Source: Tubulanus polymorphus
Lineage: Eukaryota > Animalia > Nemertea
Assembly: GCF_964204645.1 (NCBI RefSeq)
Contig: NC_134028.1
Location: 13,647,653 to 13,711,652, forward strand
Length of the DNA: 64,000 nt
Reading direction: 5' to 3'
Below, piece after piece: positions 28,085-50,620 of the stretch. The translations under genes and the position numbers were made by a program. The notes beneath the pieces are model-generated. The model did no database searches. It was not told the origin of the DNA and saw only the letters and a program-made list of their open reading frames with translations. Each line of letters starts with the position of its first letter. Position 1 is the stretch's first letter.

Positions 28085-29712
28085 TCAAAAGGATATTTCA
28101 AAGCAAACTTTGCCGGGCCAAGAACCATATTGAATTCAATTTTTTCTGAACCACCATGCCCCTTTCATCATAACATAATTTATCGTATTTCAAGATCTTA
28201 GGCCTACCAGTAGAGAGAGGGCCTACGTTGGGTTCAAATCAGAATTTTAAGATTTATTTCATTTAATTCCAGGTTTTCACTGTAGATTATTAAAGACATG
28301 TGGCGTTGTGAGAGTTCATAGTTGTTTGATAATCCATCGTTTGTAAGTGTAAGGCTATTTGAGGGATTCGAAATGGACATTTTGTAGCTTTATTACGTTT
28401 AATTCTAGAAATTCATGACATGGTTCATTTTGGGGGTTTGTCATATGTATTGTGAATTTTTTAGTTGTATTTTGTTTGATTCTAGGTGTTTATCATGAAT
28501 AGGACATGATTCATTTTGGGAGTTTGTCTGCGAGTTTGTATACTGTCAAATGAAGTTTCTTCGTCGTAAGTATCAATCTATAGGTTATATATTAGGGGTT
28601 CGATACAGAAATTTTGTGAATTCCTCAGATTTATTTTAATTCATTCCAGGTTGTTATCAGAAAAATATGTACTTTATTTCATAGGTTGGTCTTTGATTGA
28701 AAACTAAAAATGGATGATAGTTCTTAATTTGATGTTGATTCACATGACTCTAGTAAGTATGGCTCACTCGTCTTTTAGAATTAGAGACCTATTGAATTAA
28801 TCCTTCAATTCAAGTTGCTATACAACCTTTTATACAGATATACCTTATGAATATAAACATGTATTTGCCATTAGCCATAAAATTCAGTAAAACTTTTCCC
28901 GTCCAGATTTTGAAACATCATTTGACTCAATTTTTCCTCCTAGAAAATTGCTTTAGCTCATTCCAATGTTCGCAGTCAATGTGAATTGTAGCATGTATGA
29001 TTCCCATCCATCAATTTTGTCTTGTTTGGTATTTTTAGCGAGATCATCTCGAAAAAGTCTGACGTCGAGGCAGGTGGTGGCCAGAAAAAGAAATATTCTT
29101 GGGAAATATTTAAAGACGCATGGCAAACACACTTATTGTACACTTTTTTCCTATCCTTATTTTTAAATTGAAGTATTGTTATAAACTATTGATTTATTTT
29201 TGTTGATCAACGCAACTAGTTTTGTTGTTTTCTTTCTTAATTTACATTTGATTTGGATGGTCATCTTGCGTAGGAGTCAGTTTGTCATTGAAGCAGTCTA
29301 ACTTGTTGACGTCTCAGATGCAGCGGGGCAGGGCGGTCATTATATTGTGGACTTATCCAAATTACACTTACACAGCCCAACGTGTATTTCCGTCGAGTAC
29401 TGTACCCTTTCCTATGGTTTTTGCCAATATTTTCTAAATTTGGATTGATCGCCAATGGTTTTTCTTTACGACCCGGCCCTGCGGTATTGCATTTAGCCAC
29501 CGGAGAAATCCGCCATCTTTTTTCTTGACGTTCTAGCTTTCAGAACGCGTTGGATTTTTTCGCCATAAAAATCTAGTAATAAGGAATATAAGGGAGTTAT
29601 CACTCTCATAACGGTGAGTCCGTTCGGTTTGAGGGTTATCCCTGGTTTCTATTTTTCCGTAATAATTTTATTTACAAATATAATTGAATCGAATTGAATT
29701 GAATTTATTATT

Positions 29713-31860
29713 GTGACAGAAATAATTATGCCACCCCCTCCTAAGGGTCAACATCGTGGCGGTGAGGGATGTGGGCATTTGTGTCGGTGCCTGGGACAAT
29801 CAAGATTCGAGTGCGTCGTGCAGGCGCAAATCTGTGCAAGGAGTAATCCTTGCAAGATTTGCGCGGTGTGGTCCGAGGACCTTTGGCTTCGGGCCGATAA
29901 GGCTCTGAAGCCAAGAGATCGTCGTCGAGTTAATAGAAGGGATTCGTCGGTTTCGGCCGACGTGCCAACCGACGTCTCTAATTCTATTTCTGATAGTATA
30001 GCGGAGCGGTAGCCGATCGTTCTGGTACGATCGGCTTCCCAATTCCGTTCACCGGGGAGGAACGCCGGTTAACCGGCACCGGTCTCCGGTCATTCACCGG
30101 TCGTTGGTCGTTCACCGATTCGGTAGTCGGGATCGGCCGGCATCGGTTCGGTCGGTACCGGTCCGGTCCGGTTCGGGCACCGGTCCGGTCCACACGTCAT
30201 CCGGTTCAAAACTTCCGGTTCGTACATCGTCTGATTCTGATCGTCGCTCCGGGGATAGAGCTCGCTCTCCCACTAGATCCAAACGCCGTGAGCGTAATAA
30301 ACGCGCAAGGTCTCCTTCTCGCAGATCAAGGTTTGATCGCGAGAGGGATTACGATCGTTATTGCAGGAAGTTCCGCCTTCGGTCTTCTCATCGTTAGTCG
30401 ACGTCGGTTAGCGATGAAGGCGATTCTTCTAGTAGGTCTCGATCCCGTTCGAGGGACCGTCACCGAAGTCGGCATGATCGTCGGGATACGGGAAAAGTCC
30501 TGACTCAGAAGGATTTCCATGTATTTGAAGAGAAAATTTTTAACTTGTTACCATCGTCACAGCAAGTCACTGCAACCTCTACAACAGGTAAGCCTATTCC
30601 TGATTGTCCAGTTAGAAGTTCGCGAGCCCATTCAGTTGTTCGGAATTCTGACACTGAATTCCTGGATGCTGGGGTAGGGTCTGATTTCAATGAGGATCCG
30701 GTCCCAGAAGCGGCAATTTCTTCTGGTGTCGTTCTTGTCGCGAGCAATTTTGGGTTGCCCAATAGGACGGGGACTTCCCTGGCTCGCAATGTATCTCCGT
30801 CCCGTTTAGTTTTATCCGAACCAGCGGGGGACATGCCATTTAGAGCGATGATTAGTGAGTTTTTTGTCAAACACGGGGCAACTCGCGCTTAGCCCACAGC
30901 AGCTCCTCTGGTCGGTGAGTCAATGGAAGCTTATCGCCCTCCGGATTCCGATCTTAACGTTTTACGGGAATCGTCAGCGGTTTCAAGAGAATGGGCTCGA
31001 TTGGATACGCAATTATGGGGTGAATGTCGCCCTGGAACGTTTTCGTTTCCCCCTCCAGAACGGGGTATAAAATCTGGGAAATATTTTGGTTCAACCGATC
31101 CACCTATAGGCGCATTTCGCTCGGCGTATTTACGCAACTCCAGGTGTTGTGGATCACAGTCATAGCTGCCGGGATGCTGATAATACTTTGATCAGCCCGG
31201 ATACTGTTTCAGCACAGTCGGGTATTCGTTTGCCTAAGTCCGGTTTGGTGGCCATGACGTCAATCCTGGACAATCTTACCAGGGTTGGTTCGTTTCAGGA
31301 TATGGCACTTAAGGTGTTGACGGGTGAGCTTCGCGAGACTCACGCCGCCGCAGTTCCTAAAACTGGAGGGAATGGACCGGATTATCCAATTTTTGGCTCG
31401 GTCTGTTTCACATGTAATTCCGTTGTCGGTTCGGGGTCAGGCGTATTTTGTGTTAGCCTCCCGTCAGTCAGTTATGGACTCCATTTCCAAAGCTCGTCTA
31501 CCGGATATGGTGTCCAATGCTTTGCTGAGAACTCTATTGGGGACGTCTTCACGTCTCTTCTCCGATTGGTGCGCTCCTGTTTCCGCCGAGCTGAGGAAGA
31601 TTCGGTAGGTCCAGACCATGTCCACCGTCCGAACTCCGTGGAAAAAGCGTTCTGGTCCGACGCCGGCGGCGCAAGGTTCGGCACGGACGCAAACAGGACC
31701 AACTCAAACTTCAGCGTTTTCTCAGGCGGCAACGGATGCCGGTTGGAGAACTAGCGCTCAACTTCAACAATCGTGTCAAGCCTCGTCCAGTCGTAACAGT
31801 TCCAGTTCGTATCGAGGCAAGGGGAAGGCTCTAAAAAGGGGCTATTCCTTTCGGAAAAAC
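29713..31860 (+). pseudogene. DIRS gag-like ORF1 (frameshifted)
   Basis: N-terminal Cys cluster (CARSNPCKICAVWSEDLW) and Arg/Ser-rich low-complexity region, located before RT. Confidence 0.65.
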
Positions 31861-32090
31861 TCGAATGAATTCTCGGGACCAGTGGGAGGTTGTCTGCAGC
31901 AGGCAGCAACCCGCTGGTCCGACCTTTTCGGAGACGGTTGGCCCTCCCGGGTCGTCTCTCGTGGCTACCGTCTCCGTTTCCTAAGGCGACTGCGCCTGAC
32001 GAGGTCACCTCCCGACATGCGGCCAAAACAAGGTCAGGAGGCCTTAATCACTCCGGCTCTCAAGGAATTGGCCGAGAAGGGAGCGATAGA
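31860..32090 (+). pseudogene. DIRS RT 5' part, cut by the Polinton
   Basis: PVGGCLQ...W...VVSRGYRLRF...ELAEKGAIE, continuing at 49089 as PVCNETSPGWFSRIFMVPK. Confidence 0.9.
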
Positions 32091-32175
32091 AGTAATTGGA
32101 AAAGTAGGCTTTCATACCAGAGGACGAGAGGACGAGACACCACTCATCACCACAAGTAATTTTTTTTCCTAATAA

Positions 32176-35100
32176 ATGGGAGAGAATGAACACCAGCCAG
32201 AAAATAATAATGTTAATAAAAATCAATATTATTGCCAATATTGTAAAAAATACGTCGATACATCTAATAAAACACGACATGAAAAAACTGCAAATCATAT
32301 AAAAAATGTAATAGATTTTGAAACTCCAGAAAATTCCAATGAAAGAAAAGAAAGATTAGAAAATATGAATGCGGATGAAATAAAATGTGAAGTTTGTAAT
32401 GAATTTTTAGTAAAAAGGAATTATAATAGACATCTCGAATCACAAAAACATTATAAAAATTTAAATAAAAATGTTTTAGGATCAGAATATTTTGATGATA
32501 AACCTCAACAAGTAAAAAAATCAACTTCAAAAACTAAATCCATTTCAAATAAACCTTACATGGAAAATGTTAGAAATTATATCGATACAATATCGATAAA
32601 ATTGAAATTTTAGAAACATTACATAGAAAAATTGGTCCTGCAGCCATTATATTTAGATTTTTTAAAGGTACAACAATAGAAGATTATAGTACATTTAATG
32701 AAATAATAGAAAAAAAATACTAGATTTGATAACAGATGTTGAATATCCAAAAGTTAGTATCTCTGGGAAAGTAAGTTTTATAAAGTCAGAAGAAAAAATG
32801 AATTATAATATTCAAACACACTCTGAAGAAATAATTTCAAAAACACAAATAAAAGAGAAGTTAGAAAAAATATTTAATGAATTTAAACGTCATATTGAAG
32901 AAAGATATTTTGAGGGTTCTGGCTTAACATTGAATGAAATTATATATTTAGATTTAAATGTTTATAATACAAAAAGAAATAAAACATCAAAAAGTGATAA
33001 AATGTTTAAAAATGATTTGCAACAAAAGCAGTAATAAATGTTCAAAATGAAGATAATAAATGTTTTCTATGGTCAATCATTAGTTGTTTACACCCAACAG
33101 AAGATATGACGCATAGTTTAAGAATAACAAATTACCGGAAATATGAAACATTATATAAAATTGATCAATATCCAGTAACTATAAAAATGATTCCTAAAAT
33201 AGAAAAAGTTAATAATTTAAAAATAAATGTATTCGAATTAATGCAATTACCAAAGACAAAAGGTGAAAATATTAAAGATTATACATTGGAAGCTTTATAT
33301 TTAACAGAATATTATGATGATGAAAATGCTATAGATTTGTTATATTACAAAAAAGATGAAAATGAACATTATATGTGGTTAAAACCAATTGATTTATTCT
33401 TTAGAACAGAAAGTGATCACCATAATAAAATTTATCTATGTAGAAAATGTTTATCTAAATTTATGACTGAGAATACATTATTAAAACATAAAGAATTATG
33501 TGATAATAAAGATTTTTGTAAATTAATAATGCCAACAAAAAAAGATTGTAAGTTGAAATTTACTAATCATAAATTTAAGAATATTGTTCCATTTGTAATT
33601 TATGGGGATTTTGAATCGTTGAATAAAGAATTAACTGATCAAGATAGAAAAGAAATATATAACAAAAAGCAATTATTAAAATCAATGGATAAAGGAAATG
33701 AATTAAATGAAGATATAATTCAAGACCCACCAATTATAAATACAATTAAAAAAGTTCATCAAAGAGCTGCTGCTTATGGAATTTACATAAAATCAAATTA
33801 TCCTGAATTATATGAAAGTCAATATATTTCTTTTAGAGGTGAAAATGTAGTTAATGATTTTTGTGACAAAATGATTGAATTAAAAAGTGATTTTGCAAAA
33901 TTATTAAACAAAAATAAAAGAATAGTTATGACAAAAGAAGATGAAATTGATTTTAATTATGCAACTCATTGTTGTTATTGTGAAAAACGTTTTTATTCAT
34001 TTGATAAAAAAGTTACAGATCATGATCATTTAAATTCAAAATATCGTGGAGCTGCTCATGAAGATTGCAATTTACAAGCTAAAAAAGTAAATTTCGTTCC
34101 AATATTATTTCATAATTTATCCGGCTATGATACCCATCTATTTATAAAACAATTATCAAAGAAATTGGGTACAATTAATCAAGAAATAGAAGAATATAAT
34201 GCTATGAATGAAGCAAATGTAAGAAAATATGATTTTAAACTATTAGCTAAAACATCTGAAAATTATATTTCATTTCAATTTGGTTGCATTAGATTTTTAG
34301 ATTCTTATAGATTTCTAGCAAGTTCATTAGATAATTTATCAAAAAGTTTAGTTGATAATGATTTTGTTATAACTCGATATTATTATCCAAATGACCAAGA
34401 TTTTAAATTATTGAGATATTAAGGCACAATTCCTTATTCATTTTATAAAACACACAATGATCTAATGTAACAGAATTATTAAAAGATCAATTTTATGATC
34501 AATTAAAAGAGGAGTATGTGAAAGACGAAGTGTTTAATAGAACATTAAATATTGGAACCATTTTAAGATGAAAAATCATGGTGAATTAGTTGATTTATAT
34601 TTAAAATCAGATGTTATGATATTAGCTGACATATTTGAAAAATTTAGAGAAGTTAATTTGAATCATTTTAATGTTGATCCTTGTTATTGCTACTCTAGTC
34701 CTGGTTTAACCTGGCAATGTGGTTTAAAATATACAAATGTAGAATTAGATTTATTAAAAGAAACAGATATTGTTTTATTATTTGAAAAATCAATTAGAGG
34801 TGGAATTAGTGGTGTTATGGGAGATATTTTAAAGCAAATGATGAATATAAACTATTATATATTGACGCCAATAATTTATATGGTTGGCCAATGATGCAAC
34901 CTCAACCATATAAAAATTTTATATTAACAGAAGTTGAAAATGATGATAAAACTAATTGGAAAAGCGCAGTAATGAGTTTAGAAGATGAAGCACCAATTGG
35001 TTATTTCTTTGTAGTTGATTAAGAATATCCTGAAAATATAAAGTTTAAAACAAGAAACTTACCTTATTGCCCAGAACATTTAACTGTAGATGATAGTTAT

Positions 35101-37179
35101 TTAAGTGAATACCAGAAGAAAATAAAACCGAAAGATCATGTTTTTACAGAAAAATTAATACTTACTCAAAATAATAAATACAATTATATTGTTCATTATA
35201 GAATGTTAAAATTTTATCTAAAACAAGGAATGAAATTAAAGAAAGTACATAGATATATTGAATTTAATCAATCGAAGTGGTTAGAAAAATATATAGATTT
35301 TAATACTCAACAGAGAACCATATCAAAAACAGATTTTGAAAAAGATTTCTTCAAATTAATGAATAATAGTTTTTATGGTAAAACATGTGAAAATATTAGA
35401 AATAGAAATGATATTGAATTAGTAAATAATTCTGAAAGATTAAGACATTTACAATCAAGTCCTAGACATTTAGGAAATAAAAGATTTGAAGATTATTTAA
35501 CAGCAGTTAAATTAAAAAGAACTTCAATGAAATTTAATAAACCAATATTTATAGGTTCAACTGTTTTAGAAATATCAAAATTATTAGTGTATGATTTTTA
35601 TTATAATGTTTTACAACCACTTTTTGGGGAAAAGCATATTGAAATATTATATTTTGATTCTGTAACAGCTGACACCCCAATATTATTAAAATGTAATAAT
35701 AAAATATTGGTAAGAAGATTTTCAGAAATAATTCCACAACAAAATGAATGTTATATTTCATATGGTGAAAAAGAATTAATACAAATAAATGGATTAATGG
35801 ATGTTTGGACAAGAAATGGATGGAAAAAATTAAAGAATATTATTAGGCATAAAACAAATAAGAAAATCTATAGAGTTAGAACTAAATTAGGATTTGTAGA
35901 TGTTACAGAAGATCATAGTTTAATAAAACAAAATGGTGATGAAATAAAACCAACTGATATAAAAATTGGAGATGAATTATTACATAAAAGATTTTTCCAA
36001 AGAATGAATCAAATGTCATTTGATGAAATTATTGATAATATTTATAATATAGAACCCAAAACATTAGAAGAAAAAGAATATTTTATCAAAGGATTTTTCA
36101 TGGGCGATGGTTCAGCAGGTGTGTATAATTATGTTTGGTGTAATAAATATTGTTGGTATTTATGCAATCAAGACTTAAAATTATTAGAAAGAATAAAGAA
36201 ATTCTGTGAAGAAGTTTATCCAAATAAAACATTTAAAATCATGGATGTTATGAAATCATCAGCAGTTTATAGAATACTTGTGAATAATCCTAAAGATTTT
36301 GCTATAAAATATAATGATGAATTCTATATTCATGCAATAGTAAAAAGTAATACTTCAACTAAAGAAAAGATAGTACCAGATTATGTATTAAATGCAAAAA
36401 ATAATTTAAGAAAATGGTTCTTCATTGGATTCTATGCCGCAGATGACACTACAAAATTTACAAAGGATAAAAAGATAACCTTTGCACAGAAAGGAAAAGT
36501 TGCTATATCAGGATTGAATATATTATGTAATTCATTAGGCTTCAATATGAATATTCGGTTGATTAAATCTAAACCAAATTGTTTTAATTTAAGGCATGTA
36601 GAAAAAGAATTAACAGAAGAAGTTAAAGATTTATTTGAAATATATAACCCAACTGACTATGTTTATGATTTATCAACAGATGATGGAACATTCAATTCTG
36701 GGTTCCCATTAATCCAAAAAAATACCGACAGTTACATACTAAAAATCAAGACAAATGACATAACAAAAGACTTAAAAACATTAAAACATCATTTTGATTT
36801 TAGCAATTATCCCAAAGATCATGAACTATTTAGCAATGATAATAAAAAGATTCCTGGTAAATTTAAAGATGAATTAGGGGGTGATGAAATGATTGAATTT
36901 GTTGGGATAAGAAGTAAAATGTATAGTTACAGAACAAAAGATCATGAAGCTAAAAAGTTAAAAGGAATAACAAAACATGTGGTTGATAAACATATAGAAT
37001 TTCAAGATTATATAAAGCGTTTATATAAATCAATTGTAATGAAACACAAAATGAATTGTTTAAGATCAGAAGATCATGAGATGTACATTAATGAAGTTGA
37101 AAAAACTAGTTTAAATCCATTTGATGATAAAAGGCATATTTTAGATGATGGTATAAAAACATTACCTTATGGTTATTAA
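32176..37179 (+). pseudogene. Protein-primed DNA polymerase B with N-terminal zinc fingers, OTU-like and endonuclease VII-like domains, and an intein; several stops and frameshifts
   Basis: C2H2-like fingers; DNKCFLWS at about 33050; YGDFES; DHDH...RGAAHEDCN; FHNLSGYD; FLDSYRF; DANNLYG; KLMNNSFYGKT; YFD/TDS; GKFKDE; KMYSY; FDDKR...TLPYGY. Confidence 0.95.
35659..36723 (+). mobile_element. Intein with LAGLIDADG homing endonuclease (355 aa) in pPolB motif C
   Basis: YFD|SVTADTPIL; block B VTEDHSL; FIKGFFMGDG and FIGFYAADD; block F VYDLSTDDGTF; end IQKN|TDS. Confidence 0.93.
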
Positions 37180-38492
37180 AACATAAAATCAATATCATCA
37201 TAATCGAAATCACTATTGGCTTCTTCATTTTCATTTAATTGTTCAGGTTCTTCTTCCATTCCATTTTTCTCATTTAAATAAAGTTCTATCTTGTTCCACA
37301 TTTCATCTCGCTCTCTTTGTTTCTTTTTGTTTGTTAATTCATCAAATGGAATTATAATATCTATGTTTAAATAACTTACAATCTTATTTAAAAAGAATTC
37401 ATAATTAATTGAATCTGTTATTCTATTTTCCAAATGATACAATAATATTTGTTTAAATATTTTTTTAATATTTTCCATATCTTCTTCTGTTAATTTAGGT
37501 TTTTCATAATAATCGTTAAATAATAAATATAAATACATTTTCTTTTCTTTTGTGTTAAATGTTGACGGAATAATTGTTTTTATAATATCTTTTTAAGTTA
37601 TTTCACCATTTTTATTTTCTATTATTTTCATTTTTTCAAGCCATTGCATATATTCTGGTGTATGATCTTCTATAGAAAATATTTTAAAAATTTCATCTAG
37701 ATAATTTAATTTTGGATCTATGAGAAAATTCCTAGTTTTTTCTTCACTCCATAAATTCTTTTGCCATCCACATTCATTACAAAATAACACAGTACCTTCT
37801 TGCCTTAAGGTCGCGTAACTACATTGGGGACATTTTCGTTTATAATTTATTGGTAATAGATCTTCATTAAGCTCTTGGTATTTTCTTACGTTTTCTTTAT
37901 GTTTTATTGTTCTATTATGTAGATTTGAATTACTTGTTGTAATAATCAATTTACAATATTTACAATAATATGTTTTTCTTGTTAATATATTATATTGTTT
38001 TTCTAACTTTTCAACTGTTTCTTTATTATCTGGTAACGTTTTCTCATATTTTATTTTTTCTAATAAATTATCTTTTCTTTCATTGAATTCAGTTTCAAAT
38101 TTATTAGAAATTTTATCTATATGTGCTTTACGAAATTGATGATTCTCCCAATCTTCTATATTTTCAGGGCTATATTTTATTCGACAAGGCTCACAGAAAT
38201 GATCTTTTATATTATCCTTGTCATAGAATAAGAAAGGTCTTTTCCAAATAACTTCAGGTTCAACTTCAACAGAATTACTATTACTTTCATTACTATCAAC
38301 ATTAGCCGTCGTGCCATTAATTTTACACTTCTCTGAATGTTTTTTAACATAATTTCTTGAGAATAATTTATCACATTTTGGGCAGTTTATTTTAGGGGGT
38401 TTATAATTTTCATCATGTTTTTTCGTATGTCGAGCCATATTACTTTTTCTTAGAAGTTCACCACAAATTTCACATGCTATCTTCTCATCCAT
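37176..38492 (-). CDS. Polinton multi-zinc-finger protein (ORFs 37593-38492 and 37176-37538 are probably one frameshifted gene)
   Basis: Repeated CxxC...H motifs (CEIC..RH..H, CPKC, CEPC, CKYC, CPQC..CNEC). Only the upstream ORF has the TAAATG start motif. Confidence 0.6.
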
Positions 38493-38560
38493 TTATTTAG
38501 GAAAAATTTTATTAAAATTAATTTTTAGTGATGAGCGGTAATTTTTTTATGTTATAAATA

Positions 38561-39349
38561 ATGGTAGAATTAAAAGAATACAGAATATTTGTTGATTCAA
38601 GAAGACTTACGAATTATAAATCACATGATTTATTAGTTCAATTAGATAGAGAATTTAAGAATTGTGTAGATTTAAAATTAGTTAATATAAGTTTATGTAA
38701 CTCTTTTTACAATATATCAGATAAAACTGATGAACATTGAAGCCTTTTTATTTTTGATAAGGATAAAAGAAAAAATTTTCAACTTATGCTTACACCAGGA
38801 TTATATAATTTAGAAACATTAGAGCAAGAAATTAATAGAAAAGCTCGCATTAGATAAGGTAGTGATTCTAAATTTAATATTAAATTCATAAAAAGTGAGA
38901 GCTCTAATAAAATTAAAATAAAGTTTGATAATGATTATTATAAACTTTATCAACATACAATAGAAAGATATCTTTACATGGTAAAAAAACCTATAGCTAA
39001 ACTGTTAGGAATTCCTCCAGATAAAGATATTAGAGAAAACATATACGGTAGATCGAACTTAATACCTTTTACACATTTTTATATTTATTGCAATTTAATT
39101 GACCCAACAAAAACATTTGAAGCAACTAAAGATATAACTTGTAATTCTAGTATATTAAATATTTTACCATTAAAAAATGTTAAACAATTTGGAACGCAAA
39201 TAAATTATAATTTAACAGAATGTGATTTTAAACCTTGCATTCCTAAATTTAATAATTTTAAATTAGAAATAAGAAATCATAATGGATACTTAATTGATTT
39301 GAATAACTTTCCTGTGATATATGAATTAATTATAAGATGTAAAGAGTAA
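38561..39349 (+). pseudogene. Probable minor capsid (penton) protein, frameshift near 38950
   Basis: IFVDSR...NSFYNI...PGLYN...FYIYCNLI...ILNILPL...LEIRNHNG.LIDL...V.YEL.IR, a Polinton penton-like pattern recognised by eye. Confidence 0.7.
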
Positions 39350-39365
39350 TTTTTTCATTATATAA

Positions 39366-39725
39366 ATGAATATAACTGTTGGACCGAGTATATGTTTTGG
39401 GTTTGATTTTAAACGTGAGAAAGAAATTAAATTTAACATTAATGATGTAATTACACATATCAAAAATATTGCATTTTCTAATGAAACAACATTTGAGTAT
39501 GAAACAACAATAGATAAAGAAACTTTTAATGTAGAAAAGATTACTAATTTAATTAGAGAATCTTTAAGATTTTATGAATTAGATGAAGATTTTATCATCG
39601 ATGATATAAAAAAAATAATAATTGAAATATATACAAATGAAACTAGTAATGAAATAAATGTTGAATTAATCATCACTAAGATAACTAAATATTTTGAAGA
39701 TAGTAATTTTTTGATTAATAAATGA
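39366..39725 (+). CDS. Polinton hypothetical protein (119 aa)
   Basis: Open ORF with the shared T-run/TAAATG start. Confidence 0.6.
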   Translation: MNITVGPSICFGFDFKREKEIKFNINDVITHIKNIAFSNETTFEYETTIDKETFNVEKITNLIRESLRFYELDEDFIIDDIKKIIIEIYTNETSNEINVELIITKITKYFEDSNFLINK

Positions 39726-39943
39726 GTGATAATAAGTGGATAATAACTGGATTATATAATGGAGCATTACTATCAGTTGGAACTGTTGGTTATTCAATGG
39801 TATTAAAAAAAGTATTCAAAATGGGAAGTGTTAATGTTGATAGATTTGATATCAATGATATTTTAAAATTAACATTAGCAGTTACTTTATCTAATTTAAC
39901 AATTGATTATTTGGAAAAACAAAAATATATTCCTCCCATATAA
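39722..39943 (+). CDS. Polinton small hydrophobic protein (73 aa)
   Basis: Two hydrophobic segments; TAAATG start overlapping the previous stop codon. Confidence 0.65.
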   Translation: MSDNKWIITGLYNGALLSVGTVGYSMVLKKVFKMGSVNVDRFDINDILKLTLAVTLSNLTIDYLEKQKYIPPI

Positions 39944-39967
39944 ATGCATAATTTTTTTGCTAAATAA

Positions 39968-40323
39968 ATGGCTTCTGCAATTATAACTATTATAGGATCG
40001 GCAATTGTTAACGCTTTTGCATTTGCTGGTGGTGGTTATTTATTTAAACATATTGATAAAAATGGATCATTAACAGAACAAAAAAGACATAACTTAGCAT
40101 TAGAGAAATATGATAACGCTGCAGAAGAATATAGAGAAAAGAGACAAAACTATAAACTAACAGTTTATATAACGCGGTAACCAATAAAGAAAAATTACAT
40201 CTATACAAACCTAAATTATCAGATTATTATACCCCAAGTAAAGAACAACAGAAATATGAAATAATATGGATTTTAGGCGGAACTGTTATTGTTATATTTG
40301 TTGCTTATAAATTTACTAATTAG
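39968..40323 (+). pseudogene. Polinton small membrane protein (disrupted)
   Basis: N-terminal hydrophobic MASAIITIIGSAIVNAFAFAGGGYLF; C-terminal TM IIWILGGTVIVIFVAYKF in another frame. Confidence 0.6.
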
Positions 40324-40342
40324 TAATTTTTTTTCTAAATAA

Positions 40343-40777
40343 ATGGAAGATAAAGTTGATAATAATGATATTATTCCTCATGATATAAATAAAACTAAAT
40401 TAAAAACATATTTAGAAAAACAAATATTAGAATTTGAAAGTGACTTTAAGAAAAAAAAGAAAAAATATTTAAAAAGTAAAATTATATATTATTTGATTAT
40501 AAGTGGTTCGGTTACAATTAGTTCTGTAATAACATTTTTAGCAATATTCAGCTCATTAACACCTTTAGCTATATCAATTGGCGTATTAGGATTAAGTTCA
40601 AGTGTTTTAACTGGTATAAGTTCAAAATTAAATATAAAAAGTAATAAAGAAAAAATTAAAACTAATATAAAAGAAATTAATAAATAAAAGAACACACTAG
40701 ATTATATAATAAGTTTAAATGGTCATATAACAGTTGAAGAACAAGATAAATTATTAAAAGAATTAATAAATTATTAA
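40343..40777 (+). pseudogene. Polinton 2-TM protein (in-frame stop at 40685)
   Basis: Two hydrophobic helices. The frame continues KNTLDYIISLNG after the stop, as in the homologous fragments. Confidence 0.65.
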
Positions 40778-40793
40778 TTTTTTAATTATATAA

Positions 40794-42182
40794 ATGGTAG
40801 ATAGTTTTCCAAAAGCTTTCCAATATAATAAATCAATTAAATATAATATTCCAGCAATAGATTTTAATAAAGATATTACATATAGAAATGAAGTTTTAGA
40901 TTCATTAACTAATTTAGAAATTTATGTTACTGAAACTAATAATTTTAATGCAAAGATGGAAAATATATTTCATGTATATTTAATTGATTTTAAAAAATTG
41001 AAAGATGAAAAACAATGGTTATTAAAATCTAATATGAAGTATTGGCAGAACCAATTAAATTTAGCTGTTTATTGTGCAACAACAGGTTGTGGAATTAGTT
41101 GGAATGATCATTTGAATAATTCTAAATATAAATTAATTCAAAGTTTATTTAGATTTCATACATACTTTCAAATAAGATTAATATTAAATGAATTAGAGTG
41201 TCCTTTACCAGGATCTAGGTATTTTAATAAATTAGATAATAATATTAATTTGTCAAAGTTTTATAAAATTTGTAATGAATTTAATATAGATATAAATAAT
41301 TCTGATTTTAGAACGAAAATTGGAACAATAAGATCACTTCCTTGCCCTAAAAAGATTGCAGAATATTGTGCACTTCCCATACCATCTAATAGTTTTTATA
41401 ATATCTATAATAATAATTTAAGTTATGGTAAAATAGAAACTAAGGATTTAGAAACATTAAATTTCAATAAATTACCGACATTTTATGATAATTTAAAACA
41501 AGAAAACAATAATGGTTGGGTTTATTTCATTTTAGAAAATAGTGAAGGTTTTACTAAATCAGGTATAGAAAGAATAAATCAATCTATTAGAACTTATTTG
41601 ATATGTATTTTAGGTGCGCAAGTTGAAACGAGATCCCCAATAATTGGAAATTTAAATACATCATTTGATACACAGAAACAATTCAAAGTATTATTTGAAG
41701 ATTCAATTCATAATGATAAAAATAGATCGATTCCGGAAAACATTGTAAGATATCAAAATTATTTAGATAAATCTCATGTAAGACTAAATTATTGCATAGG
41801 CCCTAATCTATTAACTATTTCTAATGATTTAGTATTAAAGATGGGAAACATAATTGGTTATAATAATCTAATTAAAACTGCAACAATAAATAATTCATTT
41901 GGATTGAATGATATAAATAATAAGATAATTTCTGCTCCAAAATTAATGGAAGGTGAAAAAAATAAAAAACATATTCAATCAACAGAAACTAAAACTAATA
42001 ATATTAAATTAAATAATGATTCTAAAATAAAAGATTACAATACATCAGAAAATATTAGAACTGATAAAATTCAACATGAAATAATTAAACTAAATGATGA
42101 TAATAAATCCCATGAAAATACTAAATTAGCTTTAACTTGTATAGGAATTGTAATCGGAGGAAAATTATATTTTAAATTTTAA
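40794..42182 (+). CDS. Polinton hypothetical protein (462 aa) with a C-terminal hydrophobic anchor
   Basis: Intact long ORF; WQNQLNLAVYCATTGCGISW block; function not recognised. Confidence 0.75.
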   Translation: MVDSFPKAFQYNKSIKYNIPAIDFNKDITYRNEVLDSLTNLEIYVTETNNFNAKMENIFHVYLIDFKKLKDEKQWLLKSNMKYWQNQLNLAVYCATTGCGISWNDHLNNSKYKLIQSLFRFHTYFQIRLILNELECPLPGSRYFNKLDNNINLSKFYKICNEFNIDINNSDFRTKIGTIRSLPCPKKIAEYCALPIPSNSFYNIYNNNLSYGKIETKDLETLNFNKLPTFYDNLKQENNNGWVYFILENSEGFTKSGIERINQSIRTYLICILGAQVETRSPIIGNLNTSFDTQKQFKVLFEDSIHNDKNRSIPENIVRYQNYLDKSHVRLNYCIGPNLLTISNDLVLKMGNIIGYNNLIKTATINNSFGLNDINNKIISAPKLMEGEKNKKHIQSTETKTNNIKLNNDSKIKDYNTSENIRTDKIQHEIIKLNDDNKSHENTKLALTCIGIVIGGKLYFKF

Positions 42183-42198
42183 TTTTTTTATTATATAA

Positions 42199-43632
42199 AT
42201 GGATGTAGAAGGTGGAGAAGATATTAGAATGGATCCTTTTGATGAACCTGGTATAAGTGATGAACAACCACCTGATTTTGATGAAACAAGTTTTAATGAT
42301 GGTAATGAGCACGGATATAATAATAATTTAAATATGCCTGATTATATTAAAAATGCAGAATCACAATTAAATCCTGAAAATTTAGACCCAGGTTTAGTAA
42401 AAGAAGATTTAGATAATTTAAACAAAATACCTAAATTAGAAGATTTAATTGAAAAATCTAAACTTAACATAAATGATGAAGACGTTGGACTTTTAGCATA
42501 TCAATTAAAATTTTTAGATAATGGTAAATGTTATTATCGTTTGAAAGGTGATTATTATATTGATATCACTTCCAAAAATAATAAAAAAATATTAGCGGAA
42601 TCAACTTTGAAAAGTTTAAAACCAGATAAAATTAAAAGAATAAGTAATAGTTATGAAATAACTGATGTTACACAAAAAGAAATAGATGATAATATAGACG
42701 TATTTAAACAAAGAATTAATGAATTATTTGAAATAATCAAATAGAAATCAGAAACAGAAACAACTTCTGAACAGAATATAACTTCCAAAACTAGTAAACT
42801 TAAATCAAATAAAGTTTCAATTGAAAAACTTTTACCGAATGGATTAATTGATGCAACAGATCAACAATTAGAAGATTTAAATATATTTTCTGATGAAGCA
42901 ATTAGAGAAATTATTAGTATAAGAAATGAAGCTGATAAAATTGCACATAATAAAAGTATAAGAGATCAAAAAATTATGTATTTGGAAAAAGAATTAACTA
43001 ATGCAAATAAAGAAATAGAACAACTAAAGTCTGATTTAGATCATCAAGTAATTGATGAAATAGAATATAGGCAAAAAGAATTACGTTTAGAAAAAGAAAT
43101 TAATAATTTAAAAGATAATTTAGAAGTACAAGAAGAAGAAATTAAATTATTATTAAAATCATATGATTATAATATTAATAGATTAAAAGTTATTTTTAAA
43201 GATTTGTTGATTAAACCAAATTCTGAAATATCATTAAAAGATAGAATAAAGTTATTATTTAAATTAGAAGGAATAACAATTCTTTCAATTCTAACAGCTG
43301 TAACTATGTTATTTACAACAATTGGTTTAGCAATATCAAATGCTTTAAAATCTACTCCTACTCCCAATAAACCAGATAAACCCCCAGATAATAATTCTAT
43401 ACAAGATAAAGTTAAGGATGGTTTAAAGAAATTAGCAAAATATTTATGGGAACTATCTAAAAAATCTGCTGCAGCATTGCCAGGAGTTATTGCATCAATT
43501 GTTGGTTTTATATTGAAATCTGCAGGAAACATTATTAACTTTGCTGCTGAACATATTATTTTATTTTTAATTACAGTTGTAAGTGCTATTATTTTTGGTT
43601 TAGTAAATATGATATCAAAAAATATCAAGTAA
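42199..43632 (+). pseudogene. Polinton coiled-coil, multi-TM protein (one in-frame stop at 42742)
   Basis: ORFs 42199 and 42976 share a frame with no further stop between them. Acidic N-terminus, coiled coil, 2-3 hydrophobic helices. Confidence 0.7.
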
Positions 43633-43672
43633 ACATGATCAAAAATAAATAATTAATTTTTTTGTTATATAA

Positions 43673-44919
43673 ATGAGTGGGAGTTATATCAATCCTTCTA
43701 GGAATCATAGAATATCTAATGCTATTAAAGCAGAAAGATCACATCATATAATTACTCATAACCCTTCAAATATTAATCCCGATGAAACTTTATATGTTAG
43801 AATTCCTAGATTAACACAAAATACTTTTTATGTTCCAAATAGTATTTATTTATCAGCCGATATAAAAGTAACGGGCCATGATAACAATTATGTTGTTGAT
43901 AATGTTGGGAGATATTTGATTAAAAAATTAACTATAAAGATTGGTCCAGAAACAGTTTTCTCATTAGATGATTATAATTTATTTATGCATTATAAAGATT
44001 TATGGTTAACTAAAGAAAATAGAAATAATATGATATTTCAAGGAATCCAATCAGAAAACCATAATAAATTAAGATCAGGAGCTAATGACGCAATAGTAAC
44101 TCGTGCCACAGATAATTTGATTAAAAAGATTTATGGAAGCAAATGTAAAATTCCATTAGACTTTGAATTGATAAATAATAATGCACCTTTATATAAATAC
44201 GCAATTCAAGAAGATATTATATTTGAGATAACATTTGCTCCTGTAAATGAAATTGTATTATCTAGCGTTGTTAAAGATATGGGTTATAAATTATCGAATA
44301 TATGTTTAGAATATAACACAGTAACTAATGAAAATATTGCTAGCACAATTCAAACTCAATGCAATCAAGGATTTTCATTATTATATGATTATATTGATAA
44401 ATTTAAAACTGTAACTATTAATGCAAATGATGAAATAATTAATGAGAATATTAACTTCCCAAGAAGATCTATTAAAGGTATATTAATATTTTTTACCATT
44501 GCAACATATACTAATGGTGCAATAAATGTTGATAATTATTATAATCCTGAAATAACAAAAGTAGAAATAACTATCGAAGGAATAGCAAATAAAATATTTT
44601 GTCAAGGAATGAGAATGATAGATCAATGGCCAGAAATTAGAAAACATTTTATGAATGAAAAAGTAAAATCATCTGAAAATTGTAATACTAATCAAATTGA
44701 TTATTATACCGGTAATAAATATGCATTATGGTTAGATTTTAGAACAACAGAGGATAATTCATTACATGGTTCTGGGAAAAATTACAAAACACTAAAGATG
44801 GAATACAATTATTCATGAAAAAGAAAAAAGGAAGCCTAAATTTCAAAATGCACATTTATATTATATCTGACGCGCAATTAAATATTGTAAATTCACAGTT
44901 AGATAGTATTCAATATTAG
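43673..44919 (+). pseudogene. Probable major capsid protein (frameshift near 44780)
   Basis: About 415 codons, beta-rich pattern, located just before integrase and ATPase; second copy at 4355-5370. Fold assignment is inference. Confidence 0.65.
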
Positions 44920-44949
44920 AAATATAAAGTTAAAATTAACGATATATAA

Positions 44950-46077
44950 ATGGGAGGTAAAAAAACTCTTAATACTAAAGAACAATATATAAGAAATTTA
45001 TATTACAACCCTGAGAGTTCGGTTGCTTATTCTTCTACCAAAAATATATGGCGTCAAGTAAAACAAGATAAATTAGATAAGATAATCCCACAAAATTTAG
45101 TTAAAAATAAAGATATAAATGAATTTATGTTAGAACAACCAACATACACAACACATAAAAAAATTGTTAGAAAATATAAAACTCGTAAAACTATGGTAAG
45201 TTATGTAGATCAACAGTGGCAAGGAGATTTAATTGATATGAAAAATGTTAAGAAAGGCAATGATGATTATTGGTGGTTATTGAATATAATTGATATTTTT
45301 AGTCATTATGTATGGAGCTTCCCACTTTATAGAAAAGATGCTGTACAAACATCAAATGTTTTAAGAAAATTTCTTTCGGATGATAAACTAAAACCAGAAA
45401 AAATACAATTTGATGATGGAAAAGAATTTGATAATTCACTTGTTCATGAACTCTTAGATAATCATAATATTAAATATTTTTCAACAAAATCGGATAAAAA
45501 AGCAGCAGTTGTTGAACGATTTAATAGAACATTAAGAACAAGAATGTGGAAATATTTTACAGCCAATAATACTTTTAAATGGATTGATGTTTTGCCAAAA
45601 TTGATAGAAGGATATAATAATTCTTATCATTCTTCTATTGGAATGAAACCTATTGATGCTAGAAAACCTGAAAATGCTGAAATTGTTTGGAATAATTTAT
45701 ATGGAGCATTTCTTGTAGATGATTTTGGTGAACCTAAATTTAAAGTTGGTCAAAATGTTAGAATTTCTAAGTATAAAAAGATATTTGATAAAGGATACGA
45801 TCGAAATTTTACCAGAGAAATATATAAAATAAAAAAAGTAATAACAACAAAACCATATGTCTATAAATTAGAAGATTTAGATGGTGAAGAAGTTGATGGC
45901 TACTTTTACGAAGAAGAATTAAGTTTAACTACTGAAAATCTAGAACAAGAGTATAAGATTGAAAAAGTATTAAAAACAAAAACTACTAAAAGAAAAAAAT
46001 ATTCTTTAGTAAAATGGGTTGGATGGCCAGATAAATTCAATGAATGGATATTATCAAGTAAAATTAAAAATATATAA
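44950..46077 (+). CDS. Retroviral-like integrase with a C-terminal chromodomain
   Basis: QWQGDLIDM, IDIFS, IQFDDGKEF, VERFNRTL, YN...HSSIGMKP; chromodomain YKIEKVL...LVKWVGW...NEWI. ORF intact. Confidence 0.95.
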   Translation: MGGKKTLNTKEQYIRNLYYNPESSVAYSSTKNIWRQVKQDKLDKIIPQNLVKNKDINEFMLEQPTYTTHKKIVRKYKTRKTMVSYVDQQWQGDLIDMKNVKKGNDDYWWLLNIIDIFSHYVWSFPLYRKDAVQTSNVLRKFLSDDKLKPEKIQFDDGKEFDNSLVHELLDNHNIKYFSTKSDKKAAVVERFNRTLRTRMWKYFTANNTFKWIDVLPKLIEGYNNSYHSSIGMKPIDARKPENAEIVWNNLYGAFLVDDFGEPKFKVGQNVRISKYKKIFDKGYDRNFTREIYKIKKVITTKPYVYKLEDLDGEEVDGYFYEEELSLTTENLEQEYKIEKVLKTKTTKRKKYSLVKWVGWPDKFNEWILSSKIKNI

Positions 46078-46677
46078 ATGAATAAGGAATTATTTATATT
46101 TGAGCCTCATAATATGTTAATTTCTGGCGTAACAAATTGTGGAAAAACTTATTTTATATTAAATTTATTAGAAACTGTTTATGAAAACTATTTTGATAAT
46201 ATAGTATTATTTTGCCCAACCTATGAATTTAATCAAACTTATAATAGAAATATTACTAGAAATAATAAATTTATTATATTAGATCCTAAAACAGTAAAAG
46301 ATAATTGTATAAAAATAGCAATTGATATTTATAAGGGATCAAATACATTATTCATTATAGATGATTGTGCTAATCTACATGATTCAAAAGTTAGAGAAAG
46401 TGAGTTATGTTATTTAGCTTTTTCTGGCAGACATTTTGGGATAACAACTTGGGTTTTAAATCAAAAATATAATTCAATTGTTAAAGATTTTAGGGAGAAT
46501 ATAAGATTTCTAGTTTTATTCTACAATAAAGATAGAAAATCGATGAAAAATGCACTTGAGAAAAATGATATTATTCCACATGATTTACATAATGAATATA
46601 TGGATAAGTTGAAAAATATTAAAAGATCAAAATTACTATTTAGATTACAACACCCATTTACATATGAATTTATTTAA
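46078..46677 (+). CDS. A32/FtsK-like DNA packaging ATPase
   Basis: Walker A GVTNCGKT, Walker B FIIDD, GRH motif, Q...REN. Confidence 0.92.
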   Translation: MNKELFIFEPHNMLISGVTNCGKTYFILNLLETVYENYFDNIVLFCPTYEFNQTYNRNITRNNKFIILDPKTVKDNCIKIAIDIYKGSNTLFIIDDCANLHDSKVRESELCYLAFSGRHFGITTWVLNQKYNSIVKDFRENIRFLVLFYNKDRKSMKNALEKNDIIPHDLHNEYMDKLKNIKRSKLLFRLQHPFTYEFI

Positions 46678-46680
46678 ATT

Positions 46681-46950
46681 CAACTGGCTTATTAATCTAG
46701 TTGAATTCTAGTTACGTTCTAGTTGAATTCTAGTTATTGGTAGTTGGAACAAAAATCAACTAGATTTAACAATATTTTAACTAGCTTGTTAATCTAGTTT
46801 AATTCTAGTTACATTCTAGTTGAATTCTAGTTGTTAGTAGTTGGAACAAAAATCAACTAGATTTAACAAGAAATAAACAAAAACAACAGTATTTCAACTA
46901 GCTTGTTAATCTAGTTGAATTCTAGTTACATTCTAGTTGAATTCTAGTTG
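46681..46950 (+). repeat. CTAG-rich tandem repeat inside the Polinton
   Basis: Three copies of aactagcttgttaatctagttgaattctagttacattctagttgaattctagtt. Confidence 0.9.
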
Positions 46951-46981
46951 CAACAACACAATTAATTTTTTTGTTATATAA

Positions 46982-47569
46982 ATGGGAGGTGAAAAGAAAA
47001 TAAAATCTAAAAATGGTGATGTTCCAATTGAAAAAACTTTAGATGATTTAGGAATAACAGAAAACAAATTAATTCCAGATGATGGTGCTTTAAATAATGT
47101 TACAACAAATAATAATTATGAATATTATCTTTATTGTAAACATCAATTAGAAATATTAATAGCATCTGGAAAATGTAAAAATTTTGTCGGTAAAAATTTA
47201 ACTTATAATGAATTAGATACAATGAAATCAGATGAAATTATTAGATTATTTAAGATTTATGAAGCCGCGAGAACAGCTAGAATTAATGACGCGATATCAG
47301 AAAATGTAGTAAAAGGTTATAGTAAATTATGTAATTATATACGTCCAATTGAAGATGAAAATAGATTATATTCCGATTTAAAAAATGACTATTTAGTTAT
47401 GACTGAATTAAATAAATGGATTGGATATTTATCATTTCAATTAGGCGGATTTATGACATTATTATCAACTGGGGTTATAACATTTTCAAATATTGAAAGT
47501 AAAAATATTTCTATAATAAATGAGCGAGGTGAAAGAAGTGAAGGAATTTACTGTGAAGAAAAAACCTAG
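46982..47569 (+). CDS. Polinton hypothetical protein (195 aa)
   Basis: Intact ORF with TAAATG start; homolog fragment at 3440-3650. Confidence 0.7.
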   Translation: MGGEKKIKSKNGDVPIEKTLDDLGITENKLIPDDGALNNVTTNNNYEYYLYCKHQLEILIASGKCKNFVGKNLTYNELDTMKSDEIIRLFKIYEAARTARINDAISENVVKGYSKLCNYIRPIEDENRLYSDLKNDYLVMTELNKWIGYLSFQLGGFMTLLSTGVITFSNIESKNISIINERGERSEGIYCEEKT

Positions 47570-47888
47570 ATCACAGAAACAAATTGAATGGTCTCGGCAA
47601 TTAGGAATTAAATCACAAGAATATAAAAAAGCTGTAAAAGAAAAAATAAGTAATAAAAATGTTAATAAAAATAGTGAAAATATTGTTATTTCTACTCCTT
47701 CTGATAATAGAATATTTGATAAATATTTATATTTTACAGTTGGATTTGTAATTGTATTCATTTTGATTGGGTGTAATTGGTATAAGAAATCAAATAAAAT
47801 TCATGATATTAATAATTCTGAAACAACTGCTATTAAAAATGAAAATAGTTCTGAAATTCCAAAATTGATAATAAAAAAAATGGATTAA
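47520..47888 (+). CDS. Polinton basic single-TM protein (122 aa)
   Basis: KKKPRSQKQIEW N-terminus and TM YLYFTVGFVIVFILIGC; homolog at 3095-3440. Confidence 0.7.
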   Translation: MSEVKEVKEFTVKKKPRSQKQIEWSRQLGIKSQEYKKAVKEKISNKNVNKNSENIVISTPSDNRIFDKYLYFTVGFVIVFILIGCNWYKKSNKIHDINNSETTAIKNENSSEIPKLIIKKMD

Positions 47889-48062
47889 TATTTTAGAAAA
47901 AAGCAAAAAAAATAATTTTTTTTTAATTAATTGAATATCTCACTACTTTTGTCTATCACTGTGTGGGTGCTGTTTATGGCACCATCTATGCGGAGCAATT
48001 AAATTGTCCAGATAAGTCATTTCGGATTCTAGATATTCATTATTTTTATTATTTTATTTTTT

Positions 48063-48389
48063 TAAATTTTATCAACAATTTCTAAATCATGATGTCCATC
48101 TTCATTTTTTCCATGATATATTATTTTAAATCCTTCTAAATCTTTTAATTCCTCTGTACTCAATGAAACCCATTTATCAGGTAAAAATACTTTAAAATCT
48201 CGCGATGTACTAACATTACAGTAGCTTTAAATAGCTGATACTTTCTGTCCATATTTAGTTTTTATCTTTTCTAATTTCAATATTTTATGTTCAATTTCTT
48301 TTCATCAACTAACTTTTTTATTTCAAATTGTTTTTTGCTGGTTTTATTCTGTTATTTATTGTTGCTAAGAATGCTTTTCTATCTCCCAT
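48063..48389 (-). pseudogene. Polinton small protein (MGDRKAFLA...), disrupted
   Basis: TAAATG start; homolog at 2588-2910 with the same KIKTKYG...VF/AFLP.KWVSL...MY/IYHGKNEDGHHD sequence. Confidence 0.6.
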
Positions 48390-48524
48390 TTATTAGGAAA
48401 AGAAATTACTTGTGGTGAAGAGTGGGGATTACTTCCCCTTGTATATAACAAACACGCTATTAACCGTTCTCACCCAAGCTTCACAGCATCTATTAGGAGC
48501 AGTAATTATAACTGTCCAGATAAG

Positions 48525-48746
48525 TCATTTCGGTTCCTTGATATCAAATTCCTCAACGTATTGTTCATTATTTGGATCATTTTGGATCATCCATAATTCA
48601 ATAAATTTCTTTGCCTTTGTTAACTGTTCTAAATATAACTGTAAATCTAGTTTATTAGATTTGATTTGATTTTCTTTCTTTTCTAAAGGCCGTAAATTTT
48701 TCCAACCCCACATAAGTTTTTTATTGTATTCATCATTCCTTTCCAT
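48525..48746 (-). pseudogene. C-terminal fragment of an HNH-type endonuclease
   Basis: WKNLRPLEKKEN..KS.K; homologous to the longer copy at 55690-56287. Confidence 0.6.
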
Positions 48747-49088
48747 TTATAAGGAAAACAAATTACTTGTGGTGATGAGTGGGGATTACTTCCCCTGTAT
48801 ATAACAAACACGCTATTAACCATTCTCACCCAAGCCTCACAGCATCTATTTATCCGGGTACAGTTGACACGCAATCACTGTACTACAGTAATAGCACACG
48901 CGTTAATAACCGTTCTCAGTAGAGACTCACTGTATCAATCTATCCACGCGCAGCTGTTGTTACGCGGACTCACTGTATATGTGTGTCACAGAGCAATCGT
49001 CCGTTCTCACTAGAGCCTTGCTGTGATGAGTGGTGTCTCGTCCTCTCGTCCTCTGGTATGAAAGCCTACTTTTCCAATTACTGATAGA

Positions 49089-50620
49089 ACCAGTTTGCAA
49101 CGAAACTTCTCCCGGCTGGTTTTCTCGAATATTCATGGTACCAAAGGCCACGGGGGTCAACGGACGGTGTTAGATCTGTCATCCCTCGATCAGCACCTAG
49201 ACATTCCATGGTTCTGGATGACCAAACCCAAGGACGTTATTCAAGGGCTCCGTCCGGTTCAATGGGCGGCTTTGTTGGACCTGAAAGATGCTTACTTTCA
49301 GGTTCCAATGCAACTAAAATCTCGGCGATTTCTCAAGATAAAGTGGAAACCGCCAGTTCCAATTTAGGTCTCTTCCATTTGGCCTCAGTACGGCCCCGTG
49401 GGTTTTCACCAAGTTGGTCAAGTCAGTTCAGAAGGTTCTTCAGTCAAGGGGTGTTCGACTGTTCGTTTACCTCGACGACTGGTTAATAGTCGCGAACTCG
49501 GCTCAAGAATGTCGGGAGGCAATGACCTCAGTCTTGGACTTAGTCCATCAGCTAGGGTTCCGCAGAAACAGGGAAAAATCTCAACAGTTCTTTTATCTCA
49601 GCATGGACTTCGATCTACGAATCGGCAAAGTCTTTCCGTCTATGGCTCGAGTAGCCAAACTTCAAGAAGCTGTAGCGGGAGTGTCCACAACCCCGAGAAC
49701 AGCTCGTTACTGGTCACGGCTTCTAGGTTTTATCAGCTCCATGGGTCTGGTGGTGCCCTTAGGCCGCCTCAGAAGCAGACGCTTGCAACAATATTGGAAG
49801 GTCTTCTGGTCTCGGTCGAAGGGCAACTGGGAGACCTTGATTCCCGTACCTCCAACCGATCTAAGTTCGGATCTTCATTGATGGGCGGCAACTACGAATC
49901 TTCGGCGCGGGGTGTCACTAGCCCCGTTAGAGGCTCCAGTTCGTGTATTCACGGATGCCAGTCACCAAGGATGGGGGCACATCTGGGGAACCGAGTCAAT
50001 GCCGGAAGATGGTCTCGCTACGAGGCCACCAACCACATAATCTTGGAAATGCTGGCCGTGTGGAAGGCCCTGAAGTTTTTTTCACAGGAGAGTGGATGGC
50101 CACCACATTTGGTTAGCCAGAGACAATTCAACAGTGAGTGCTTACCTTCAGAACCAAGGGGGCACTCACTCAGAAATCCTCACTGATCTGTCGGCCAAAA
50201 TTCTTCTTTGGTGCCAGACAAAGGGCGTGTCCCTGACTGTGGCACATTTAGCAGGGAAAAAGAACGTGATGGCCGATGCTCTCTCGTCGAGGTCAGGCTA
50301 TTGCGACAAAATGGGTTCTCCACCAAGAAGTAGCCGATCGGGTTGGAGGCATGTTTGGCAATGCGCTGCTGGATCTGTTTGCCACCCGGTTCAATCGGAG
50401 GTGTCCTCTGTTTGTTTCCCCGTTTCCAGACGCGGAAGCGTGGGGGGTCGATGCCTTCTCTCTGGACTGGTCGGGGATGCATGCGTCAATTGCAACATAG
50501 TTCTGGTAGCACAATGTTGGCCGGCACAGAAATGGTTCCTACCACTTATCATCCTACTGTGCGACAACCCCAGGATTCTTCCGAATTTCCCATCGCTTCT
50601 GTCTCAGGGGAACTTTCGGC
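49089..50620 (+). pseudogene. DIRS RT 3' part, RNase H and methyltransferase-like domain (degenerate)
   Basis: LDLKDAYFQVP, LPFGL, YLDDWL; FTDASHQGWG; DNSTV; LDLFATRFN...DAFSLDW. Confidence 0.9.

Follow-up and report, generated by a model that had tools for sequence, protein, structure and literature searches.

A class 1 intein at the motif-C site of a Polinton DNA polymerase in what is very likely an animal genome

Does an animal chromosome carry a genuine intein, and if so, how did it come to be there? Eukaryotic inteins numbered 257 in one survey, where those of viruses belonged to four NCLDV families, Iridoviridae among them (PMC5784728), and nuclear inteins have been assigned almost only to fungi, algae and protists (PMC5784728, PMC10710043). 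A sequence-only reading of the window (the whole stretch of 64,000 nucleotides analysed here) had proposed a full-length LAGLIDADG intein inside a Polinton polymerase in an animal genome. Our analysis confirms a class 1 intein of the pol-c allele in a decayed Polinton, very likely of an animal, and makes it probable that this intein originated in a giant virus, would be spliced in sister copies and spreads by homing.

The insert and both of its ends are certain. Translation of 35659-36723 yields 355 codons without a stop, from SVTADTP to FPLIQKN, which interrupt a 718-aa frame exactly between the D and T of YFD/TDS, as had been claimed. An intein-free polymerase relic elsewhere in the window, with YFDTDS in one piece, proves the boundaries: from one side of the site to the other, the alignment offset of the two polymerase sequences changes by exactly 1065 nt. 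Likewise, 31 aligned empty polymerase homologues have no residue at the insertion site. The relevant features are:

35659..36723, plus strand: class 1 intein, 355 aa; Hint domain formed by residues 1-110 and 320-355 (approximate), which flank a LAGLIDADG endonuclease domain with two motifs
35905..35916, plus strand: block B, TEDH (residues 83-86; Thr83, His86); T, D and H in 102 of 102 aligned relatives
36085..36111, plus strand: LAGLIDADG motif 1, IKGFFMGDG (143-151); Asp150 retained, D in 96 of 102 relatives
36421..36447, plus strand: LAGLIDADG motif 2, FIGFYAADD (255-263); Asp262 retained, position 263 deviates
36658..36726, plus strand: block F, YVYDL (334-338; Asp337), block G, Lys354-Asn355, and C-extein Thr+1
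13960..15650, plus strand: second polymerase relic, degraded, with an empty site (15431/15432, YFD/TDS); 74-80% DNA identity to both exteins

The sequence-only reading had noticed neither this empty allele nor the wider clade of Polinton inteins with signs of homing.

The class 1 residue set is complete (S1, T83, H86, D337, N355, T+1), and every hallmark named beforehand was found: Ser start, Lys-Asn end, Thr+1, a TxxH block B, block F and two LAGLIDADG-like motifs. For comparison, 102 relatives were extracted by their junction motifs, 18 of 120 first-search matches being excluded for lack of a clean junction. All 102 begin with Ser and end with Asn, and Ser1, Thr83, His86, Asp337 and Asn355 are retained in every one of them once aligned. 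The penultimate His, which is usual but not obligatory in class 1, is replaced by Lys354, and no His precedes the Phe of block F; both absences are common to the intein and its giant-virus sister group. Inteins that splice without the penultimate His are on record (PMC4031507). The penultimate Lys had been said to recall the mimivirus PolB intein; a special link of this kind did not hold, since Lys is the commonest state at that position (49 of 103 inteins, versus 37 with His).

An HMM search, as had been proposed, recovered the Hint domain: the NCBIfam model TIGR01445 (intein_Nterm) scored 28.5 bits against a cut-off of 24.5, while Pfam Intein_splicing (E 1.8e-6) and LAGLIDADG_3 (E 2e-4) both fell below their own cut-offs. 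A phmmer search with the intein led to PI-PkoII. An AlphaFold2 model built from 33 sequences (pLDDT 90.7, pTM 0.91) matched the intein-endonuclease structures 7qst (E 4e-17), 7qsu, 2cw7, 1dq3 and 1vde in Foldseek; its intein and homing-endonuclease matches include PI-PkoII, PI-PfuI and PI-SceI as well as I-DmoI, and its top viral matches are PolB of phycodnavirus, pandoravirus, marseillevirus and megavirus. Motif 2, suspected of being degenerate, does depart from the family: the residue common to 95 of 102 relatives is replaced at position 263, and that common to 83 of 102 at position 265; the endonuclease of this copy may therefore be inactive. Collectively, the residue and fold comparisons confirm 35659-36723 as a class 1 intein of the PolB motif-C (pol-c) allele with a LAGLIDADG domain, predicted to splice.

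The host gene and its surroundings comprise the following:

32091..49082, no strand: Polinton/Maverick, complete over 16,992 bp; GC content about 23%, termini AG...CT, inverted repeats of 66 bp (97% alike) at its ends
32085..32090 (left) and 49083-49088 (right), plus strand: 6-bp target-site duplication GATAGA, perfect
32176..37179, plus strand: gene for the protein-primed family B polymerase that carries the intein; six frame changes and two in-frame stops before 35023
37176..37592, minus strand: gene resembling VLTF3 (poxvirus late transcription factor 3); Pfam PF04947 match at E 2.8e-6, above cut-off
43673..44818, plus strand: probable major capsid protein, judged from a weak Pfam Capsid_N match (E 0.0096), position and size
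44950..46077, plus strand: retrovirus-type integrase with chromodomain; rve E 4e-10, Chromo E 5e-5
46078..46677, plus strand: A32-type packaging ATPase; Pox_A32 E 3e-11
29700..51800 (approximate), plus strand: DIRS-type retroelement, split by the Polinton within its reverse-transcriptase frame; RVT_1 E 1e-12

Judged by its inverted ends, 6-bp duplication, protein-primed polymerase (pPolB), integrase and ATPase, the element at 32091-49082 is a Polinton, in agreement with the earlier assignment. A Pfam scan recognised neither an adenain-type maturation protease nor a minor capsid protein in it. The reverse-transcriptase frame of the surrounding DIRS element resumes across the target duplication. 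Observed CpG amounts to 0.55 of the expected in the Polinton and to 0.19 within the intein, where sites are few, compared with 0.9-1.0 in the flanks.

Lesions of the polymerase were counted against intact relatives. The sequence-only reading had stressed that the intein frame is intact although the upstream polymerase is damaged. The frame is indeed open, the polymerase reading without a break from 35023 to its stop; the significance attached to this did not stand, as with 8 breaks in 3,477 nt the chance of 1,065 unbroken nt is P = 0.086. The intact frame was accordingly rejected as evidence of separate selection on the intein. Because of the eight upstream breaks this copy cannot make the polymerase precursor, and any activity must therefore belong to sister copies; the window copy is a dead relic.

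X5 is a single-organism WGS run from a different study (1,934 Mb read; threshold 88%). In it, read depth was 137-243 in four bins of the intein versus 275-325 in the adjoining extein bins, and 1,105 of 24,879 aligned reads were 99% alike. From the left end of the element, 649 reads exit into many different flanks, and 977 reads carry the DIRS form without interruption. The depths and the variety of flanks indicate a multicopy element family, a large share of which bears the intein. No X5 read skipping the intein was seen among the 15 of 97 joints listed; one X2 contig does skip it.

Whether the host is an animal was judged from the only cellular gene found in the window:

16956..17186, minus strand: DUOX (dual oxidase) exon, AG/GT bounded; mouse and human DUOX1, E 3e-18 and 1e-17
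1580..1861, minus strand: DUOX exon, AG/GT bounded; DUOX1, E 3e-18
17409-17563, minus strand: third DUOX-like exon, in phase, separated by a 222-nt intron from the exon at 16956-17186

These exons form a colinear gene with spliceosomal introns. Beside its splice phase, the third exon shows what we take to be a resemblance to DUOX; it had no match in the PDB. About 15 kb of repeats lie between the first two, and no further DUOX exon or other cellular gene emerged when sets of 77 and 135 short frames were scanned with Pfam. To our knowledge, DUOX is essentially an animal gene, and the spliced exons thus make an animal host very likely, as the sequence-only reading had held; we are highly confident that it is an invertebrate. 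Species-named relatives of the polymerase are Argopecten and Oculina (two named among the 120 matches listed), and Littorina is a named match of the DIRS recombinase (2 of 15 matches named); as a group, these named organisms are molluscs and a coral. The contig could in principle stem from a protist, a contaminant or a chimeric assembly, which would turn the find into one more intein in the virus of a unicellular eukaryote, and protists are rich in Polinton-like viruses. This is very improbable given three DUOX-like exons with canonical splice sites, an intron of 15 kb filled with transposons, DUOX1 outscoring NOX2 and NOX5 by 11 orders of magnitude, a perfect target duplication within a host retroelement, and the presence of element, flank and intein in a single-organism run.

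Several minor features accompany this gene. The DUOX sequence at 1580-17563 (minus strand) is divergent; neither one exon expected between 1861 and 16956 nor any exon upstream could be located. The intron region holds, at 1-7200 and 13960-15974, rearranged and scattered Polinton fragments (capsid, terminal region, polymerase) that are 74-87% identical to the main element, one of them interrupted by a Penelope-like GIY-YIG piece at 4012-4386. Another DIRS element at 9013-12951 (minus strand) has frames for reverse transcriptase, a Dam-like methyltransferase and tyrosine recombinase.

Where did the intein come from? Homologues number 286 among longer proteins and 2,035 among cluster representatives. 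Ninety-four of the 102 extracted relatives follow the motif-C Asp of a polymerase (YGD in 85), and seven lie in topoisomerase II. The nearest inteins, 42-62% identical, occupy the same site in seven protein-primed polymerases (P0002-P0006, P0009 and P0010), and all seven have canonical LAGLIDADG motifs. A scan of viral contigs (37 loci) and of metagenome contigs (the 80 best of 270) gave no intein closer than 41% over its full length. Phylogenies comprised a quick 103-row tree and careful 32-row and 40-row trees (LG+G4), all unrooted. The eight Polinton inteins are one clade, with support of 100 in the 103-row tree and 100/100 in the 32-row tree, although an AU test did not reject P0005 lying outside the other seven (p 0.149). 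The tree against NCLDV inteins that had been called for sets this clade beside inteins of RNA-primed, PF00136-type PolB, one of which, P0017, matches a giant-virus MAG locus at 99.8% identity. Giant-virus PolB inteins are hence the nearest relatives outside Polintons, consistent with the statement that giant viruses use this motif-C site. The intein likely came once from a giant-virus polymerase; we favour this donor because diversity is far greater on that side and the pol-c allele is known from archaea and viruses.

Homologous inteins also occur at D/TDG in the type II topoisomerases P0007, P0085, P0114, P0116, P0118, P0120 and P0121. The D/TDG site mimics the polymerase D/TDS, and these inteins form one clade within those of PolB (a non-allelic jump).

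After acquisition, did the intein descend with its polymerase or continue to move? In the 40-row polymerase tree, from which intein columns were removed, the eight carriers are not a clade (four changes; AU p 6e-90). Seven fall in one 12-row clade together with five empty rows, including the nearest relatives of the window polymerase (71-80%). The eighth, P0005, belongs to a different polymerase class (probably Alpha versus Beta in the sense of PMC8502044); its extein is 19-23% identical to those of the other carriers, its intein 45-49%. Inteins and exteins of the main clade show matching levels of identity (62/61, 66/69 and 77/82%) and the two trees largely agree, which points to an old acquisition followed by long co-descent; vertical descent with losses would account for this as well as homing. 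A recent arrival in this element was rejected on composition and on the parity of intein and extein trees.

Closely related occupied and empty polymerases were compared at the protein level in the families of P0003 and P0006, two 90% clusters whose sizes are 136 and 121, with 15 members of each listed. In the P0006 cluster, the occupied P0139 and the empty P0142 are identical at 743 of 746 extein residues (99.6%). The P0003 cluster, with contigs of up to 1 Mb, has seven occupied members, six empty ones and two that end before the site; both endonuclease motifs are canonical in all seven occupied members. Far from the site its empties share 95-99% of their residues with P0003, against 76-85% within -40/+44, an interval chosen after seeing the data, and all 10 unshared columns fall in -7..+44. 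The empties of this family (P0130-P0135, P0128) read motif C as DTDA or DCDS, not DTDS. Atlas leads for P0003 were arthropod and mollusc clusters, all sub-0.9, and are not counted as support. Occupied/empty pairs, site-centred divergence and altered motif C are signs of co-conversion and target-site escape, the pattern that both would be expected to leave.

A rival account accepts a real splicing intein of old acquisition and has it inherited vertically ever since, with an endonuclease that no longer homes, the empties arising through an occasional exact loss or from recombination with relatives that lack the intein. It would accommodate the near-congruent trees and parallel identities of the 12-row clade, an intein GC content of 25% like that of the element, the deviant motif 2 of the window copy and the empty state of its closest polymerases. 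It is hard to reconcile with the 99.6%-identical occupied/empty pair, the divergence centred on the site, the changed motif C of the empties, the intein in the distant P0005 polymerase and the canonical endonuclease motifs of all seven other Polinton inteins, and we regard it as unlikely.

The reading we prefer, with homing, would proceed as follows. The donor and a Polinton likely came into contact during co-infection of a cell with a large DNA virus. An intact element would make its polymerase as a precursor carrying the intein; Ser1, aided by Thr83 and His86, together with Thr+1 and Asn355 would then excise the intein and rejoin D with TDS by class 1 chemistry (PMC4031507). As the intein splits the catalytic motif C, occupied elements would depend on splicing for replication. 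The freed endonuclease would cut the empty YxD/TDS site of a co-resident element, and repair would copy the intein in with some flanking sequence, so that persisting empty copies of the same family would be those with a changed site. Splicing, cleavage, direction of transfer and helper virus are all things that we infer.

The insert might instead not splice at all, as a tolerated or cleavage-only Hint domain, or as a passenger of passive elements replicated by the polymerase of empty helpers. His is indeed missing at both positions that usually assist the last step (Asn cyclisation), and empty elements coexist in this genome and in related families. Yet the insert splits the catalytic D/TDS, the five splicing residues from Ser1 to Asn355 are found in every aligned relative, and full-length occupied polymerases of 1,537 aa, 99% alike, exist in many copies; there is little chance that this account is correct.

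How does this intein compare with known ones? The pol-c site and its Ser/Asn/Thr residues were defined in the mimivirus APMV Pol (PMC549080), and 67 viral polymerase inteins and 14 iridovirid inteins have been counted (PMC5784728). The pol-c inteins of giant-virus PolB (mimivirus, phycodnavirus) share with ours the position III site YxD/TDS, Ser1/Asn/Thr+1 and LAGLIDADG motifs, and a size of 351 aa was given for one (PMC549080) versus 355 aa here; identity to giant-virus MAG inteins is 33-43%. Their host is an RNA-primed, Pol-delta-like PolB, whereas ours is a protein-primed Polinton polymerase, and ours rides a 17-kb integrating element with many chromosomal copies. By site and residues it is a genuine member of the pol-c allele in a new class of host protein, and the animal nuclear genome is very likely a new compartment for such inteins.

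Iridovirus inteins, such as that in the ribonucleotide reductase of Chilo iridescent virus (PMC549080, PMC4031507), likewise reside in viruses of animals and so provide a precedent for splicing in animal cells; iridoviruses, however, are exogenous, large and not inherited through the germline, and the CIV intein ends in Gln. Inteins of endogenous viral-like DNA polymerases in Klebsormidium, Tetrabaena and a labyrinthulid also lie on nuclear scaffolds, and the Pol delta intein of Chloropicon (P0090) is a homologue of ours at the same site (PMC10710043). Unlike the animal Polinton intein, these belong to algae and protists, in giant-virus relics or cellular genes; the main text of that study, as available, makes no mention of animal, metazoa or polinton.

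HNH/VSR nuclease inserts in Polinton pPolB (PMC10748475) are likewise endonuclease domains inside Polinton polymerases, and it has been suggested that they stem from intein invasions (PMC11161782). Neither a Hint domain nor splice junctions have been reported for them, and they leave the catalytic motif unsplit, whereas the window insert is a complete intein; the word intein is absent from the available text of PMC10748475. The window polymerase also contains an Endonuclease VII/HNH-like domain. Adintoviruses (PMC8502044) and coral polintoviruses with VLTF3 (PMC11131425) share with the window element inverted ends, a 6-bp duplication, pPolB, integrase, ATPase, VLTF3 and a probable capsid protein; the window element differs in that no adenain-type protease was recognised. 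The available texts of both studies lack the word intein. More broadly, the possibility had been raised that inteins are already well documented in animal Polintons; no intein from a Polinton or an animal nuclear genome is reported in the openly accessible literature found, which includes the available text of PMC12220804, PMC3671162, PMC13768754, PMC7765530 and PMC11296320.

An intein that is multicopy and inherited through the germline of an animal reveals a route of entry, by way of a virus-like transposon. With it, the range of the pol-c allele comes to include protein-primed polymerases, and genes are seen to have passed between giant viruses and Polintons. Why animal genes stay free of inteins becomes testable, as the endonuclease is present in cells whose own Pol alpha/delta genes carry the homologous motif. 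The occupied and empty copies offer material for following homing and target escape, and the family is a source of mesophilic inteins with cysteine-free (Ser/Thr) junctions that presumably work in animal cells. More tentatively, animal Polintons may sustain a full intein life cycle: viral capture, splicing, spread through chromosomal and replicating copies, jumps between the two polymerase classes and motif-C escape, the elements being dependent on the poxvirus-like transcription of the co-infecting virus. We consider this broader scheme possible but doubtful; if true, animal genomes would have yielded their first natural intein gene drive.

With respect to transcription, 11 of the 14 ATG-started frames of at least 90 aa (32176-47520) open at TAAATG, mostly after a run of T, versus a background of 46 among 667 ATGs overall (7%). 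We take such starts behind a T run to be like the late initiator/promoter of poxviruses. Together with the VLTF3-like gene, by analogy, they suggest growth alongside a large cytoplasmic DNA virus. Rfam and ARAGORN searches found nothing. Finally, three tandem repeats of 97-117 nt separate the ATPase gene from the one after it, at 46679-46989, and internal partial repeats of the left subterminal region lie near the right end, at 48382-48850.
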